Part shown: positions 998 through 5,196 of the stretch, in pieces | Layout of the letters: each line of letters starts with the position of its first letter | Position numbering within the stretch: the stretch's first letter is position 1 | From: Escherichia coli | GTDB lineage: Bacteria; Pseudomonadota; Gammaproteobacteria; Enterobacterales; Enterobacteriaceae | Length of the DNA stretch: 5,196 bases | Direction: 5' to 3' (one strand) | Assembly: GCF_003334335.1 (NCBI RefSeq) | Contig: NZ_QOWQ01000077.1 | Notes under the pieces: model-generated | Database searches by the model: none | The model's input: the letters and a program-made list of their open reading frames with translations, nothing else | Told to the model about the DNA's origin: nothing | Program-made: the position numbers and the translations under genes

Positions 998-1426
998 TTA
1001 CTGTCTGCCCTCGTATCCATCGAGATAAACCGCAGAAATGGTGTCTGCCATTAGTTTCATTTTTTTCGGCGAAGGCATATCGCTGTTTGTGTATTTTCTG
1101 CCAGCAAAGGTTGTTGTGCTCCGGAGTGAGTGAAAAAATTTTTCTGAGTGGAATTCTTTTACACGTTGCTGTGCCGTTTCTGCTGATACTCCGGCTGCTT
1201 TGTCTTTCATCCCCATATCCCGGAACTGCTGAAAGAACGGGAGCATCATACGTATGGTGTCTGCTTTCTGGGTGTAGAAGTTAGGATCAAATCCATCATC
1301 TGAAGCATAAACATAATGCCGGGTATGTCGTTCCAGGCTGGTCTTTGGTGTGCATCCTGTAAGAGCTATTGTTGCTGTTATCAGAGGTATCAGAAGCAGC
1401 CTGGCAGCGGCAGATCTCATAAACAT
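998..1426 (-). CDS. Hypothetical lipoprotein (142 aa), function unknown
   Basis: The N-terminus MFMRSAAARLLLIPLITATIALTGC has a positively charged n-region, a hydrophobic core and an LTGC lipobox, indicating a signal peptidase II substrate. The mature part is hydrophilic. I recognise no family. The stop codon lies 3 bp from the cer XerD arm. Confidence 0.6.
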   Translation of the reverse strand: MFMRSAAARLLLIPLITATIALTGCTPKTSLERHTRHYVYASDDGFDPNFYTQKADTIRMMLPFFQQFRDMGMKDKAAGVSAETAQQRVKEFHSEKFFHSLRSTTTFAGRKYTNSDMPSPKKMKLMADTISAVYLDGYEGRQ

Positions 1427-1541: not shown

Positions 1542-1820
1542 GTGAAAAAATGTGTGCCAGTCCTGCTTTTTAGTGTTCTTTCTGCTTCGGTTGCCAGTCA
1601 TGCGGACAGCAATGTTTTTCAACAAAAGGCCGAGAAGACAAAAAACGGCATTGTTGCGGATGTTAATGCCAGACAGAAAATGTTCAGTAACAGACTGAAG
1701 ATACAACTTCAGATCGATGAGTTGAGAGCAGAGCTGGCTGGCACCAGAGATGCCCAAAAAAGAGAGGATTTGCGTAAAAAACTGGAGTCTCTGGAGCGGC
1801 AAAAGAAATCCTTACGCTGA
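1542..1820 (+). CDS. Hypothetical secreted or periplasmic small protein (92 aa), charged and probably helical
   Basis: GTG start with AGGA about 7 nt upstream. Signal peptide MKKCVPVLLFSVLSASVASHA with an AxA-like cleavage site (SHA|D). The mature ~71 aa are K/E/R/Q-rich with heptad-like spacing (QLQIDELRAELAGTRDAQKREDLRKKLESLERQKK). Divergently arranged with the lipoprotein gene across a 115-bp intergenic region. Confidence 0.5.
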   Translation: MKKCVPVLLFSVLSASVASHADSNVFQQKAEKTKNGIVADVNARQKMFSNRLKIQLQIDELRAELAGTRDAQKREDLRKKLESLERQKKSLR

Positions 1821-2129
1821 TGGGGGCGTATTTTCCCCGGTTTCTTCCATAACCTTTTTACCGTTCAGATATTTACGGGCGAGGCGAATGCGTCTTGCCT
1901 GGTATACCGCCGAGTAAGCCTGGGTGGGATTCACACCATTACTGATTTCACTGACCACATGACGCTGATCTGCCAGTGTCAGCGTGTAAACCTGTTTCTG
2001 GATGAGGTCACGGGCTTTGTCATGCTCATATCCGGCAGCAACAAGGGTGTCGAGAAGTCGTTTGTCTGTTTTGTTCAGTTTATGGCGGGGTGATTTGCTC
2101 ACATCGTTCTCCGTTTTTTCATGATCCAA
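1812..2129 (-). CDS. Hypothetical basic protein (105 aa), putative DNA-binding (HTH-like)
   Basis: ORF convergent with the 1542..1820 gene (9-bp overlap) and divergent from the colicin promoter. The segment DKRLLDTLVAAGYEHDKARDLIQ looks like a helix-turn-helix. An alternative start is GTG at 2102, preceded by GGAG. No family recognised. Confidence 0.45.
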   Translation of the reverse strand: MDHEKTENDVSKSPRHKLNKTDKRLLDTLVAAGYEHDKARDLIQKQVYTLTLADQRHVVSEISNGVNPTQAYSAVYQARRIRLARKYLNGKKVMEETGENTPPSA

Positions 2130-2234: not shown

Positions 2235-2263
2235 TTGACATGGACAATGCTGAATAGTAGGTT
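2235..2263 (+). promoter_or_regulatory. Colicin operon promoter
   Basis: Perfect -35 TTGACA at 2235..2240, a 17-bp spacer, and a -10-like TAGGTT at 2258..2263, immediately upstream of the LexA boxes. Confidence 0.55.
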
Positions 2264-2267
2264 TTTG

Positions 2268-2298
2268 CTGTACATAAAACCAGTGGTTATATGTACAG
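2268..2298. promoter_or_regulatory. Tandem overlapping LexA (SOS) boxes
   Basis: CTGTACATAAAACCAG (2268..2283) overlaps a second box read on the bottom strand, CTGTACATATAACCAC (2283..2298). This dual-box arrangement is characteristic of colicin promoters and nearly identical to the recalled colicin E1 operator. Confidence 0.85.
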
Positions 2299-2346: not shown

Positions 2347-3819
2347 ATGGATAAAGTCACTGATAATTCTCCAGATGTGGAGAGCACAGAATCTACTGAG
2401 GGGTCATTCCCAACTGTTGGGGTTGATACTGGCGATACGATTACAGCGACGCTTGCAACTGGAACTGAAAATGTTGGTGGAGGCGGTGGAGCATTTGGTG
2501 GGGCCAGTGAAAGTTCTGCTGCGATACATGCAACCGCTAAATGGTCTACCGCGCAGTTGAAAAAACATCAGGCTGAACAGGCTGCCCGTGCTGCTGCGGC
2601 TGAGGCAGCATTGGCAAAAGCGAAATCTCAGCGTGATGCCCTGACTCAACGTCTCAAGGATATTGTTAATGACGCTTTACGTGCTAATGCCGCTCGTAGT
2701 CCATCAGTAACTGACCTTGCTCATGCCAATAATATGGCAATGCAGGCAGAGGCTGAGCGTTTGCGCCTTGCGAAGGCAGAGCAAAAAGCCCGTGAAGAAG
2801 CTGAAGCAGCAGAAAAAGCGCTCCGGGAAGCAGAACGCCAACGTGATGAGATTGCCCGCCAACAGGCTGAAACCGCGCATTTGTTAGCAATGGCGGAGGC
2901 AGCAGAGGCTGAGAAAAATCGACAGGATTCTCTTGATGAAGAGCATCGGGCTGTGGAAGTGGCAGAGAAGAAGCTGGCTGAGGCTAAAGCTGAACTGGCG
3001 AAGGCCGAAAGCGATGTACAGAGTAAGCAAGCGATTGTTTCCAGAGTTGCAGGGGAGCTTGAAAACGCTCAAAAAAGTGTTGATGTGAAGGTTACTGGAT
3101 TTCCTGGATGGCGTGATGTTCAGAAAAAACTGGAGAGACAATTGCAGGATAAGAAGAATGAATATTCGTCAGTGACGAATGCTCTTAATTCTGCGGTTAG
3201 CATTAGAGATGCTAAAAAAACAGATGTTCAGAATGCTGAGATAAAATTAAAAGAAGCTAAGGATGCTCTTGAGAAGAGTCAGGTAAAAGACTCTGTTGAT
3301 ACTATGGTTGGGTTTTATCAATATATAACCGAACAATATGGGGAAAAATATTCCAGAATAGCTCAGGATTTAGCTGAAAAGGCGAAGGGTAGTAAATTTA
3401 GTAGTGTTGATGAAGCTCTTGCTGCATTTGAAAAGTATAAAAATGTACTGGATAAGAAAATCAGTAAGGTTGATCGGGATGCTATTTTTAATGCGTTAGA
3501 GTCTGTTAATTATGATGAGTTATCTAAGAATTTAACGAAGATATCAAAGTCGCTTAAAATCACTAGTCGAGTATCTTTTCTATATGATGTTGGTTCTGAT
3601 TTTAAAAATGCAATAGAAACTGGTAACTGGCGACCTTTGTTTGTCACGCTGGAGAAAAGTGCGGTCGATGTAGGTGTGGCAAAAATTGTGGCATTAATGT
3701 TTAGTTTTATTGTTGGTGTGCCTCTTGGTTTCTGGGGGATTGCAATTGTCACAGGTATTGTTTCTTCTTACATAGGGGATGATGAGTTGAACAAACTTAA
3801 TGAGTTGTTAGGGATTTAA
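2347..3819 (+). CDS. cta: Pore-forming colicin, colicin E1 family (490 aa); best recalled match is colicin 10
   Basis: AGAGGA lies 9 nt upstream of the ATG. Residues ~55-130 ([29 protein letters not shown]...[16 protein letters not shown]...[31 protein letters not shown]) and the C-terminal channel domain (YGEKYS...[28 protein letters not shown]...LKIT..VSF.YDV.SD...TG.W.PLF.TLEK.A.D.GV...VAL.FS...[15 protein letters not shown]....LN..NE.LGI) closely parallel the recalled colicin E1 sequence. The N-terminal ~50 aa and the central region differ. The 490-aa length, the 96-aa immunity protein and the 43-aa lysis protein fit my recollection of colicin 10, but colicin 5 or a close relative cannot be excluded without a search. 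Confidence 0.85.
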
Positions 3820-4106
3820 TTTCTCTTTAGAGTGTAATATATGAAACTTGGCAATCCTACTGGGATTGCCATTAATAAATAAAACAATGCAGATAACTTG
3901 CATAAGTACCAGGGTTCTTTTTTTAACTTTGTATTTTCTTTGATATATCTAGATATGGTTAATTTAGAGTATGGATATAGCAATACATGTATTGATGATA
4001 TAAATATAAATAACAAAGGAGTGTTATCATTGTCGTTAAATATTAAAATAAGAATCCATGGTATAAGTGATTCAGGTAAATTATGTAGGTAGTATTTTAA
4101 ATGCAT
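3816..4106 (-). CDS. cti: Pore-forming colicin immunity protein, E1 type (96 aa, integral membrane)
   Basis: Convergent with the colicin gene; the two stop codons overlap at 3816..3819. The protein is very hydrophobic and AT-rich in codon usage, with about three predicted transmembrane segments. Motifs [15 protein letters not shown] and [14 protein letters not shown] resemble the recalled colicin E1 immunity protein (...CPYSKYAIEHIF..., ...LAIPFGLLGLVY...). Confidence 0.8.
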
Positions 4107-4135
4107 AAGTATTTTTACTTTTGTTGGAAAGAAAT

Positions 4136-4267
4136 ATGAAAATAATAATTTTTCTAATTACAATATTATTCTTGTCAGGATGTCAAGCAAACTATATTCG
4201 TGATGTGCAAGGAGGAACCGTTGCACCATCTTCGTCTTCTGAACTGACGGGGATCGCGGTTCAGTAG
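4136..4267 (+). CDS. ctl: Colicin lysis (release) lipoprotein, 43 aa
   Basis: Not in the supplied ORF track (too short). Hand translation gives [43 protein letters not shown], with GGAAAG 5-10 nt upstream of the ATG. Signal peptide plus LSGC lipobox and a short mature peptide are typical of colicin lysis proteins. It sits downstream of the immunity gene on the colicin strand, as kil does in ColE1. Confidence 0.8.
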
Positions 4268-4275
4268 AAAAGATC

Positions 4276-4302
4276 AAAGGATCTTCTTGAGATCCTTTTT
4301 TT
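4276..4302 (+). terminator. Rho-independent terminator of the colicin-lysis operon
   Basis: Hairpin aaaggatct / agatccttt with a 5-nt loop, followed by a T7 run (4295..4302), immediately after the lysis gene stop. Confidence 0.65.
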
Positions 4303-4321: not shown

Positions 4322-4429
4322 TGTAAACGAAAAAACCGCCTGGGGAGGCGGTTTAGTCGAAGGTTAAGTCAGTTGGGGACTGCTTAACCGGGTAACTGGC
4401 TTTAGTGGAGCACAGATACCAAATGCTGT
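4322..4429 (-). ncRNA. RNA I antisense copy-number control RNA (about 108 nt)
   Basis: The 5-prime end ACAGCAUUUGGUAUCUGUGCUCC... is the complement of 4429 downward and is homologous to the pMB1 RNA I start ACAGUAUUUGGUAUCUGCGCUCUG. The 3-prime end is the hairpin plus U-run complementary to aaaaaaccgcctggggaggcggttt at 4327..4351. Confidence 0.75.
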
Positions 4430-4870: not shown

Positions 4871-5091
4871 GCGGGCTTCTTCCGGTGCTTTGCTTTTTGC
4901 TCACATGTTCTTTCCGGCTTTATCCCCTGATTCTGTGGATAACCGTATTACTGCTTTTGAGTGAGCTGACACCGCTCGCCGCAGTCGAACGTCCGAGCGT
5001 AGCGAGTCAGTGAGCGAGGAAGCGGAAGAGCGCCTTATGTGACATTTTCTCCTTACGCTCTGTTGTGCCGTTCGGCATCCTGTCCTGAGCG

Positions 5092-5196
5092 TTATCTCTC
5101 TGTGCTATTTTCTACTTCAAAGCGTGTCTGGATGCTGTTCTGGAGTTCTTCTGCGAGTTCGTGCAGCTTCTCACACATGGTAGCCTGTTCGTCAGC
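5092..5196 (-). CDS. rom: Rom/Rop, 3-prime portion (stop at 5092..5094); continues as feature 1..167 across the circular junction
   Basis: Same reading frame as feature 1..167; reverse-complement translation ends ...QTRFEVENSTER*. Positions 5120..5196 duplicate 1..77. Confidence 0.85.
   Translation of the reverse strand, partial: ADEQATMCEKLHELAEELQNSIQTRFEVENSTER
5120..5196. repeat. Terminal 77-bp exact duplicate of window positions 1..77 (circular-plasmid linearisation overlap, not a biological repeat)
   Basis: aagcgtgtctggatgctgttctggagttcttctgcgagttcgtgcagcttctcacacatggtagcctgttcgtcagc occurs at 1..77 and 5120..5196. Implied unit length is 5,119 bp. Confidence 0.9.

Follow-up and report, generated by a model that had tools for sequence, protein, structure and literature searches.

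The colicin operon studied here raises the question of why base composition changes so abruptly inside a single gene, with a GC content of about 0.52 at 2347-3058 and of 0.34-0.36 at 3059-4267. The window, which is the whole 5,196-nucleotide stretch of Escherichia coli DNA that was analysed, corresponds to a complete 5119-bp circular plasmid plus a terminal overlap of 77 nt, and the operon span (2347-4267) begins with the start codon of the colicin gene and finishes with the stop codon of the lysis gene. A preliminary description of this DNA had recognised a colicin-immunity-lysis operon, which is confirmed by the matches of the Pfam profiles Colicin, CKI and Lysis_col, and had explained the change by domain shuffling and a pore, immunity and lysis cassette acquired from a lower-GC donor. 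We consider it very probable that 2347-4267 is the already described colicin 5 operon cfa-cfi-cfl on a 5.1-kb ColE1-type plasmid. This is one joint judgement, which covers the colicin 5 identity, a GC step explained by protein composition and a recombinant structure between colicin 10 and colicin K.

The colicin 5 operon and its plasmid

The first gene, cfa (2347..3819, + strand), encodes a protein of 490 aa that is, residue for residue, the colicin 5 reference in an exact-sequence look-up (Colicin-5, CE05_ECOLX). The Pfam Colicin profile (PF01024) matches aa 306-487 with E=7.5e-32, and the PDB matches include the ColE1 pore domain (2i88, E=1.6e-69) and the ColE1 T-domain (6wxh, E=5e-56). These matches at the C-terminus, where the family has a channel domain of about 185 aa with a hydrophobic helical hairpin, and a hydrophobic stretch of 29 residues read in the sequence place the protein among the pore-forming colicins. 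Matches to SMC and JetC in NCBIfam and PADLOC were discarded as spurious coiled-coil similarities, far under any cut-off.

Concerning its domains, the N-terminal unstructured region (aa 1-55; 2347..2511, +) is unrelated to E1 and contains a Gly run and the TonB-box-like motif DTITA at aa 30-34. This region is the same as in colicin 10 (100%), whereas its identity to E1 and K is 19-44%; in the E1 comparison, aa 1-28 are not alignable (19%) and aa 29-55 present only a Gly-rich similarity (44%). Colicins 5 and 10 reportedly have a TonB box and depend on TonB (PMC11658791), and DTITA is, in our own assignment, the candidate for it. It is followed by an Ala/Glu/Arg-rich helical hairpin (aa 56-190; 2512..2916, +) that resembles the TolC-binding translocation domain of ColE1, with 77% aa and 75% nt identity. 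Among known structures, query aa 29-204 match the ColE1 chain 6wxh and query aa 54-222 match klebicin C (7nna/7ng8). A tblastn search with the hairpin, in which the low-complexity filter shortened the matches, retrieved no klebicin locus. The central segment (aa 191-300; 2917..3246, +) is common to colicins 10 and K and is not E1-like according to the identity profile: it is 98-100% identical to colicin 10 versus 25-34% to E1, and against colicin K the figure falls from 83% at aa 191-260 to 55% at aa 261-300. Tsx is given as the receptor of colicins 5, 10 and K (PMC9558359). Finally, the pore-forming domain (aa 301-490; 3247..3816, +; PF01024) is 60-63% identical to E1, with a GC content of 0.356 and a GC3 of 0.284. 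The colicin is therefore chimeric relative to E1, as had been proposed, with E1-like sequence at aa 56-190 and 301-490 and unlike sequence at aa 1-55 and 191-300.

The immunity gene cfi, or cki (3816-4106, - strand), encodes a 96-aa membrane protein whose sequence is that of IMMK_ECOLX, the immunity protein of colicin K, without any difference (Pfam CKI, PF17500, E=1e-56). It is convergent on cfa and both stop codons overlap in TTAA (3816-3819). The lysis gene cfl (4136-4267, +) encodes a colicin release lipoprotein of 43 aa with the lipobox LSGC and a match to Pfam Lysis_col (PF02402, E=4e-24); an exact-sequence look-up gives it the name colicin release lysis protein, and the colicin K plasmid encodes the same protein. 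A mechanical list of open reading frames puts the start of this gene at a TTG at 4121 instead of the 4136 used here. Directly 3' of cfl, a motif scan found a terminator-like hairpin with a T-run (4276..4298, +).

Upstream of cfa, a putative colicin promoter (2235..2263, +) was read from the sequence, with the -35 hexamer TTGACA (2235-2240), a 17-nt spacer and the -10 hexamer TAGGTT (2258-2263). A simple consensus scan left it unlisted because the -10 hexamer is weak, and the plasmids of colicins 10 and K have almost the same sequence here (1 difference). A double overlapping LexA (SOS) operator is predicted just after it (2268..2298, +), formed by CTGTACATAAAACCAG and then GTGGTTATATGTACAG. 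The pattern CTGT-N9-CAG gave one match, CTGTACATAAAACCAG at 2268-2283, and this pattern by itself is not rare by chance. In the alignment all four colicins (5, 10, K and E1) have the same second box (2283-2298), and colicins 5, 10 and K also have the same first box, the aligned ColE1 stretch having stopped short of the latter. SOS control of colicin promoters via LexA is established. By homology with those promoters, the predicted operators between the promoter and the colicin start codon are probably functional, and the operon would be one of the SOS-regulated colicin operons.

According to what is known of the family, DNA damage would remove LexA from the double SOS box, allowing the transcription of cfa and of the downstream lysis gene. 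The product of the convergently transcribed immunity gene would protect the inner membrane of the producer, and the lysis lipoprotein would release the toxin. Homology and published work (PMC9558359, PMC11658791) suggest that colicin 5 would bind Tsx, enter through TolC with energy from TonB and kill by forming a pore.

Regarding the plasmid, a ColE1-type RNAI (RF00106) is found at 4327-4427 on the - strand (77 bits), Rop is annotated in the record of an identical plasmid, and a 30-nt query taken as the core of cer, the multimer-resolution site of ColE1, is present exactly (30/30) at 965-994. The backbone that carries the operon here is the 5119-bp one with rop-mobA. Two small conserved open reading frames (1542-1820, +, and 1812-2102, -) had no match in NCBIfam or PADLOC. 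The operon is 99.8-99.9% identical to copies on plasmids of 5119, 6822 and 7769 bp; among 5426 complete E. coli genomes, 16 records match it at 99% or more, all of them plasmid-borne, and the database matches found were all enterobacterial. With the colicin 5 operon reference (UniProt CE05_ECOLX) it shares the gene order, the convergent immunity gene and the SOS promoter, the plasmid backbone alone being different. Near-identical plasmids are already in the databases, and the operon is a known and ordinary one. The colicin 5 operon cfa-cfi-cfl was reportedly the subject of papers by Pilsl and Braun in 1995 (J Bacteriol 177:6966 and 6973).

Base composition and codon positions

The best two-segment split of 2347-4267 falls at nt 3059 (GC 0.518 vs 0.336, LLR 30.8), and none of 500 permutations rose above an LLR of 9.1 (p<=0.003). 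In 200-nt windows the GC content is 0.50-0.545 at 2401-3000, 0.32-0.395 at 3101-3900 and 0.23-0.285 at 3801-4200, and it is about 0.5 again from 4201 onwards. The GC step and the non-uniform profile are therefore real, and other details of the preliminary description were found as well: the quoted GC-rich run gctgcggctgaggcagca lies at 2593-2610, there are 56 Ala and 30 Glu among the first 250 aa, and the immunity gene is extremely AT-rich, with a GC content of 0.261 overall and 0.26 at each of the three codon positions. AT-rich DNA had been described from about 3150 to the end of the lysis gene; the drop holds, with its change point at nt 3059. An origin of the shift in promoter or terminator sequences was rejected, as consensus scans gave just the terminator-like hairpin after cfl.

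To locate the step among codon positions, cfa was divided into an N part (aa 1-250) and a C part (aa 251-490). GC1 is 0.692 in the N part vs 0.475 in the C part (p=1e-6) and GC2 is 0.476 vs 0.321 (p=5e-4), whereas GC3 (0.360 vs 0.287) does not differ significantly between the two parts (Fisher p=0.1). The first, second and third codon positions account for 0.49, 0.35 and 0.16 of the step, so that positions 1 and 2 together carry 84% of it. Change points are significant for position 1 (nt 3124) and for position 2 (nt 2911), and none was found for GC3 (p=0.39; scan statistic p=0.46). Codon usage stratified by amino acid did not differ significantly between the N and C parts of cfa (p=0.35), nor was a further synonymous test within cfa significant (p=0.13). 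A GC3 "hump" at codons ~130-229 (GC3 0.45) was considered as a segment of separate origin and rejected by the permutation scan (p=0.46). The hairpin (2512..2916), which is the core of the GC-rich stretch, has a GC1 of 0.66-0.82 with a GC3 of just 0.28-0.40, and 37 of the 56 Ala codons in the Ala-rich part of cfa end in A or T.

The amino acid sequence combined with one gene-wide codon table reproduces the windowed GC content (r=0.981, R2=0.96, residuals from -0.03 to +0.045), and the cfa table predicts a GC content of 0.290 for cfi (observed 0.260) and of 0.385 for cfl (observed 0.389). The GC step is mostly the result of the amino acid usage of each domain over a single, uniformly AT-biased codon usage. 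The hairpin is GC-rich because an Ala/Glu/Arg/Gly-rich domain needs GCN, GAR, CGN and GGN codons. The 3' DNA is AT-rich because A/T-rich codons are needed by the Lys/Ile/Asn/Ser/Leu-rich receptor and pore parts and by the Leu/Ile/Tyr/Lys-rich immunity protein (19 Leu, 11 Ile, 9 Tyr and 8 Lys in 96 aa). Amino acid composition may itself drift with the mutational bias of a donor, and ancient, differing origins of the domains are formally compatible with these results.

A weak synonymous trend was also observed. GC3 is 0.360 in the N part vs 0.283 in a pool of the C part with cfi and cfl (Fisher p=0.044); relative to this pool the N part has 13.4 extra G+C at synonymous choices (permutation p=0.017). 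The trend reaches nominal significance only if both small genes are added to the C part in this way, and no more than about a fifth of the step can be ascribed to it. The codons ATA, TTA and AGA are commoner in the 3' part and cfi; rare codons of the ATA/TTA/AGA/CTA type make up 22/240 in the C part and 24/96 in cfi. The codon-usage comparison that had been proposed as a check thus gave a weak pooled trend but no significant shift within cfa.

The step is not unique to this operon. ColE1 shows the same raw-GC step without a GC3 step, and colicin 10 has the same step as colicin 5. Colicin K, without the Ala-rich N-terminus, has no overall GC step and presents a GC bump on the Ala/Glu-rich segment that it shares. 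Since ColE1 has the raw step and the colicin K bump moves with the Ala/Glu-rich segment, the pattern is a property of the domain and not of the history of the operon.

Recombination between colicin 10 and colicin K types

Diagnostic sites and dS place a crossover between colicin-10-like 5' DNA and colicin-K-like 3' DNA at 3442..3474 (+), codons 366-376. The last site at which the window agrees with colicin 10 and not with colicin K is 3441, and the first with the opposite agreement is 3475. The dS to colicin 10 is 0.016 upstream of the crossover and 0.96 downstream, and to colicin K it is 0.52 upstream and 0.012 downstream, which are 40- to 60-fold jumps; a 60-nt identity profile agrees with this position. 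As judged from these comparisons, the operon is a recombinant, of colicin 10 type to codon ~366 and of colicin K type from codon ~376 through cfi and cfl. The flanks are identical in the three plasmids (colicin 5, 10 and K), and a second exchange point is hidden there.

The colicin 10 operon (cta-cti-ctl) is about 99.6% identical at nt 2347-3441, with identical plasmid DNA upstream, and its N-terminal region, TolC-binding hairpin and receptor segment are the same as those of colicin 5. It differs in the pore domain (codons 372-450 at 67% aa identity, with the downstream dS given above), in the immunity gene (55-92% nt identity in 60-nt windows) and its specificity, and in the lysis gene (73-87%, same windows). 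With the colicin K operon (cka-cki-ckl), on the other hand, 60-nt windows give 98-100% identity from nt ~3461 onwards, across cfi and cfl and into the ori region, and the last 375 nt of cfa match cka at 99%. Colicins K and 5 have the same immunity and lysis proteins and resemble each other in part of the receptor segment (83% at aa 191-260), but the first ~250 aa of colicin K are unrelated (19-41% identity) and lack the Ala richness. Colicin K has been reported to be Tol-dependent via OmpF, in contrast to the TonB/TolC dependence of colicin 5 (PMC9558359). ColE1 shares the hairpin (aa 56-190, 77%), the pore domain (~61%), the second LexA box, the gene order and the overlapping convergent stop codons; it differs in the first ~55 aa, in the receptor domain and in its immunity protein, which belongs to another family (113 aa). 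E1 binds BtuB and uses Tol (PMC9558359).

The domain comparison with colicins E1, 10 and K that had been suggested did locate breakpoints, at ~2500, at 2860-2920 (where E1-like sequence ends), at 3250-3280 (where it resumes) and at 3442-3474. The raw-GC change point matches none of the four: nt 3059 falls within the central segment, in sequence 98-100% identical to colicin 10. The crossover is confined to 33 nt inside the pore domain, about 400 nt from the GC step, and the recombinant junction is unrelated to that step. Domain mosaicism is real and already described, and a recombinant of colicin 10 and colicin K types is a standard example of how colicins evolve by modules. Modular recombination has shaped the operon as had been proposed, but a lower-GC donor is not supported, given that the step lies mainly at codon positions 1 and 2.

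The AT bias of synonymous sites

Beneath the step, the whole operon is AT-biased at synonymous sites. GC3 is 0.26-0.36 in the parts of the operon versus 0.43-0.60 in the genes of the plasmid backbone and 0.563 +/- 0.035 in a host sample of 42 E. coli K-12 CDS, so that even the GC-rich N part (0.36) is 5.8 sd under that sample. Low GC3 with AT-rich pore and immunity genes was found in 8/8 colicin operons (E1, K, 10, Ia, B, N, S4 and M). Synonymous sites are saturated between colicin 5 and E1 (dS 1.3-2.6), and a GC3 near 0.3 is kept in both.

This uniformity despite saturated divergence fits a selection that maintains AT-rich, rare-codon usage along the operon, with the GC step still a protein-composition effect on top of it. 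We hold this explanation as a tentative possibility. It may act through tRNA availability, coupling toxin synthesis to stress or starvation, or through silencing of AT-rich DNA by nucleoid proteins. The rare-codon load of the C part and cfi points in the same direction, as does the near identity of the 3' end of cfa to cka: a coupling of colicin K synthesis to stress or starvation via tRNA availability has reportedly been found (work from 2001, cited in PMC2790905), and a positive effect of ppGpp on cka expression has been described (PMC4675545). However, a plasmid-specific or mutational bias gives the same pattern.

It is somewhat more doubtful that the whole operon came from a low-GC lineage and kept its signature, with no shift toward E. 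coli composition. The contrast in GC3 with K-12 and the backbone is in line with such an origin, as is the extent of the AT-rich operon DNA, which begins at the promoter and ends at the cfl stop, where the ColE1-type replication region then starts. A similar argument has been made for colicin Z (39% vs 45%, PMC6668396), and Pseudomonas PmnH lies in a low-GC stretch (48% vs 61%, PMC5358913). Nevertheless, the persistence of the bias in colicin 5 and E1 at saturated dS, and its presence in all eight operons on different plasmid types, argue against it, no low-GC donor is known and the matches found are all enterobacterial. The picture is closer to an AT bias held at equilibrium than to a foreign signature on its way out, even if the divergence may be older than any transfer.

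Very unlikely, since the tests of GC3 and codon usage have refuted it for the most part, is the lower-GC donor cassette of the preliminary description, in which the receptor/pore part, cfi and cfl were fused to a higher-GC 5' part: the raw GC step, the weak pooled synonymous trend and the A/T-rich rare codons of the 3' part and cfi speak for it, but no synonymous test within cfa is significant, the 5' part has a very low GC3 too, nt 3059 is not a breakpoint, ColE1 shows the same pattern, the GC bump of colicin K goes with the Ala/Glu-rich segment, and all the colicins compared have an AT-rich 3' block.

The explanation by protein composition therefore has a simple consequence: a raw GC step inside a gene is no evidence of foreign origin unless synonymous sites shift too. 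An Ala/Glu-rich helical domain beside Lys/Ile/Leu-rich domains gives a GC swing of 0.15-0.25 under one codon usage. These results also touch the broader question of why colicin operons in general keep AT-rich synonymous sites. If selection on the synonymous AT bias is true, the enrichment of ATA, TTA and AGA in the pore domain and the immunity gene would be part of a rare-codon, ppGpp-linked control, and the composition of these operons would carry regulatory information instead of a record of their origin.

Identity and arrangement of the colicin 5 operon

The segment 2347-4267 begins precisely at the start codon of the colicin gene and ends at the stop codon of the lysis gene. It comprises the colicin gene cfa (2347-3819, plus strand), whose 490-aa product is exactly colicin 5 (CE05_ECOLX), the immunity gene cfi (3816-4106, minus strand), whose 96-aa product is identical to the colicin K immunity protein, and the lysis gene cfl (4136-4267, plus strand), which encodes a known colicin release lysis protein of 43 aa. 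The Pfam matches are the Colicin pore domain (aa 306-487), CKI and Lysis_col. Upstream of cfa lie a putative promoter, TTGACA-N17-TAGGTT (2235-2263), and a putative double LexA operator (2268-2298), whose box 2 does not vary among colicins 5, 10, K and E1 and whose box 1 is the same in colicins 5, 10 and K. Among 5426 complete E. coli genomes, 16 records hold the operon at 99% identity or more, plasmid-borne in all of them and on at least three backbones.

Considering homology and the literature, LexA on the double SOS box would repress the promoter, and DNA damage would lead to the transcription of cfa and the downstream lysis gene. The convergent immunity gene would protect the producer through a membrane protein that blocks the pore, the lysis lipoprotein would allow colicin release, and the C-terminal domain would form the channel. 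Uptake of colicin 5 is reported to involve binding to Tsx, passage through TolC and a need for TonB via an N-terminal TonB box (PMC9558359, PMC11658791). DTITA (aa 30-34) is a candidate for this box, and TolC passage could proceed by a helical hairpin resembling those of E1 and klebicin C.

At 3816-3819 the stop codons of the convergent colicin and immunity genes overlap in the palindrome TTAA; this 4-nt overlap is also present in ColE1 (colicin end at 2708 and immunity gene at 2705-3046 in a rotated record). A hairpin with a 9-bp stem (TGGCAATCC...GGATTGCCA, 3849-3871) is located 30 nt past the colicin stop, in the 3'-terminal part of the immunity gene. On the colicin strand it has no proper T-run, and attenuation of read-through into the lysis gene is a possible role.

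Amino acid composition and the GC step

The preliminary description had claimed a change from GC-rich to AT-rich DNA inside the operon, and this compositional observation is confirmed. GC is 0.50-0.545 at 2401-3000, 0.32-0.395 at 3101-3900 and 0.23-0.285 over the immunity gene, returning to about 0.5 past 4200. The best two-segment split falls at nt 3059 (0.518 versus 0.336-0.360), far outside all permutations. The GC-rich run quoted at that time was located at 2593-2610, and the immunity gene is indeed extremely AT-rich (0.260).

Regarding the cause, GC at each codon position was compared for aa 1-250 and aa 251-490 of cfa. It dropped from 0.692 to 0.475 at the first position (p = 1e-6), from 0.476 to 0.321 at the second (p = 5e-4) and from 0.360 to 0.287 at the third (p = 0.1), so that the first two positions, which set the amino acid, account for 84% of the step. 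Significant change points were found at nt 3124 (position 1) and nt 2911 (position 2); for position 3 there was none within cfa (p = 0.39), and scanning GC3 for local anomalies revealed none that was significant (p = 0.46). The high GC of the 5' part stems from its abundance of Ala (56 of 250 residues) and Glu (30), which the preliminary description had noticed; even so, 37 of the 56 codons for Ala have A or T at the third position.

When the amino acid sequence is combined with one codon table for the whole gene, the windowed GC profile is recovered (r = 0.981, R2 = 0.96, residuals from -0.03 to +0.045). The cfa table also predicts a GC of 0.385 for the lysis gene (observed 0.389) and 0.290 for the immunity gene (observed 0.260), which encodes a membrane protein whose 96 residues include 19 Leu, 11 Ile, 9 Tyr and 8 Lys; the AT-richness of the latter is therefore what its residues would give under the codon usage of the operon. 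Since there is no significant GC3 step within cfa and one codon table fits the profile, a pore/immunity/lysis cassette from a lower-GC donor, as initially proposed, is not supported. A weak synonymous trend exists, the 5' part having 13.4 G+C bases above expectation versus the 3' part, cfi and cfl pooled (p = 0.017; raw GC3, p = 0.044), with ATA, TTA and AGA codons commoner in the 3' part and cfi. It explains no more than about one fifth of the step, could have other causes and is not significant within cfa alone, being a minor caveat.

Mosaic structure of the colicin and its plasmid

The other half of the initial interpretation, a mosaic protein, stands. Identity to E1 reaches 77% over aa 56-190 and about 61% over aa 301-490 but is only 25-34% in the central receptor segment (aa 191-300); aa 1-28 are unrelated and aa 29-55 present Gly-rich similarity only. 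Boundaries were obtained from a codon-aligned comparison and a 60-nt identity profile. The upstream DNA (about 1000-2320) shows 97-100% identity in 60-nt windows among the colicin 5, 10 and K plasmids. The operon then equals colicin 10 over nt 2347-3441 save for 6 differences, and colicin K from about 3461 through cfi and cfl into the ori region. Sites informative between colicins 10 and K switch between 3441 and 3475 (codons 366-376), dS to colicin 10 rising from 0.016 (aa 1-371) to 0.96 (aa 372-450) and dS to colicin K falling from 0.52 (aa 191-371) to 0.012 (aa 372-490). Judging from these alignments, the switch is the signature of one homologous exchange within the pore domain, which would carry the immunity-determining pore part along with its immunity gene. 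A single private substitution lies at 3460, inside the crossover interval, giving Ile368 where colicins 10 and K both have Phe (KKISKVD versus KKFSKVD); Ile368 is part of the colicin 5 reference protein. Older boundaries are seen against E1, with E1-like DNA at about 2500-2860 and again from about 3280, and the resemblance to colicin K starts at about 2920. The GC step at 3059 coincides with none of the boundaries found and sits within a stretch 98-100% identical to colicin 10.

The first 77 bases of the window equal its last 77, and it is therefore a single 5119-bp circle read with overlap; at full length it is 99.9% identical to the E. coli plasmids pEcoUTI1a (NZ_CP049851) and CP125069. It carries rop (across both window ends), a small MobA/NikA-type gene (427-774), an Exc2 lipoprotein gene (998-1426, minus strand) and, downstream of the operon, a ColE1-type replication region with RNAI (4327-4427, minus strand). 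The relaxase gene is absent from the plasmid, which a database nonetheless types as mobilizable (MOBF). The 30-nt query GGTGCGTACAATTAAGGGATTATGGTAAAT, which we take to be the XerC/XerD core of ColE1 cer, matches exactly at 965-994, the point where likeness to other colicin 5/10/K backbones starts (match edges 943 or 968). Whereas the 6.8-7.8-kb colicin 5/10/K plasmids carry MobC/MbeB/MbeD, positions 1-945 and 5064-5196 hold a different rop-mobA(nikA) segment, which shares 99.8-99.9% identity with 3172-bp cryptic plasmids (among them one from Citrobacter rodentium) and with 5153/5159-bp plasmids bearing a different E1-like colicin. Hence, the backbone itself is mosaic. The position of the cer core suggests that the colicin module may have moved between backbones via Xer-mediated or cer-adjacent recombination.

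Two small conserved ORFs, one of 92 aa with a signal-peptide-like N-terminus (1542-1820, plus strand) and an overlapping one of 96 aa (1812-2102, minus strand), take the place of entry exclusion protein 1 of ColE1 and the colicin N plasmid, and had zero matches in NCBIfam or PADLOC. Their DNA is almost identical among the plasmids of colicins 5, 10 and K (with a single difference in that of colicin K), and they are also annotated in a colicin S4 plasmid.

AT bias across the operon and the colicin family

Compared with 42 K-12 genes (GC3 0.563 +/- 0.035) and the plasmid backbone genes (0.43-0.60), GC3 is low in the N part of the colicin (0.360, 5.8 sd under the K-12 sample), the C part (0.287), cfi (0.258) and cfl (0.318). 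Should any part be compositionally foreign, it would be the operon as a whole and not its 3' three-fifths. This bias could be kept by selection; colicin K reportedly has codon-usage-based, ppGpp-dependent control. Between colicin 5 and E1, synonymous divergence is saturated and GC3 nonetheless remains near 0.3 in both; the comparison leans towards a maintained bias without being proof of it. The bias could also be a relic of a low-GC ancestor, as argued by the authors of the colicin Z report (PMC6668396), and PmnH in Pseudomonas lies in a similar low-GC stretch (PMC5358913).

Regarding the step, ColE1 presents the same raw change (0.48 to 0.36) without a GC3 step. The N-terminus of colicin K, in contrast, is Gly/Asn/Ser-rich instead of Ala-rich, and the colicin K gene has no significant GC step but a single bump (0.48-0.49, codons 251-350) on the Ala/Glu-rich segment that it has in common with colicins 5 and 10. 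Low GC3 (0.26-0.48) is found in colicins E1, K, 10, Ia, B, N, S4 and M, whose immunity genes have a GC of 0.26-0.38. Hence, the pattern is a property of the domains and of the colicin family, not of the history of this operon.
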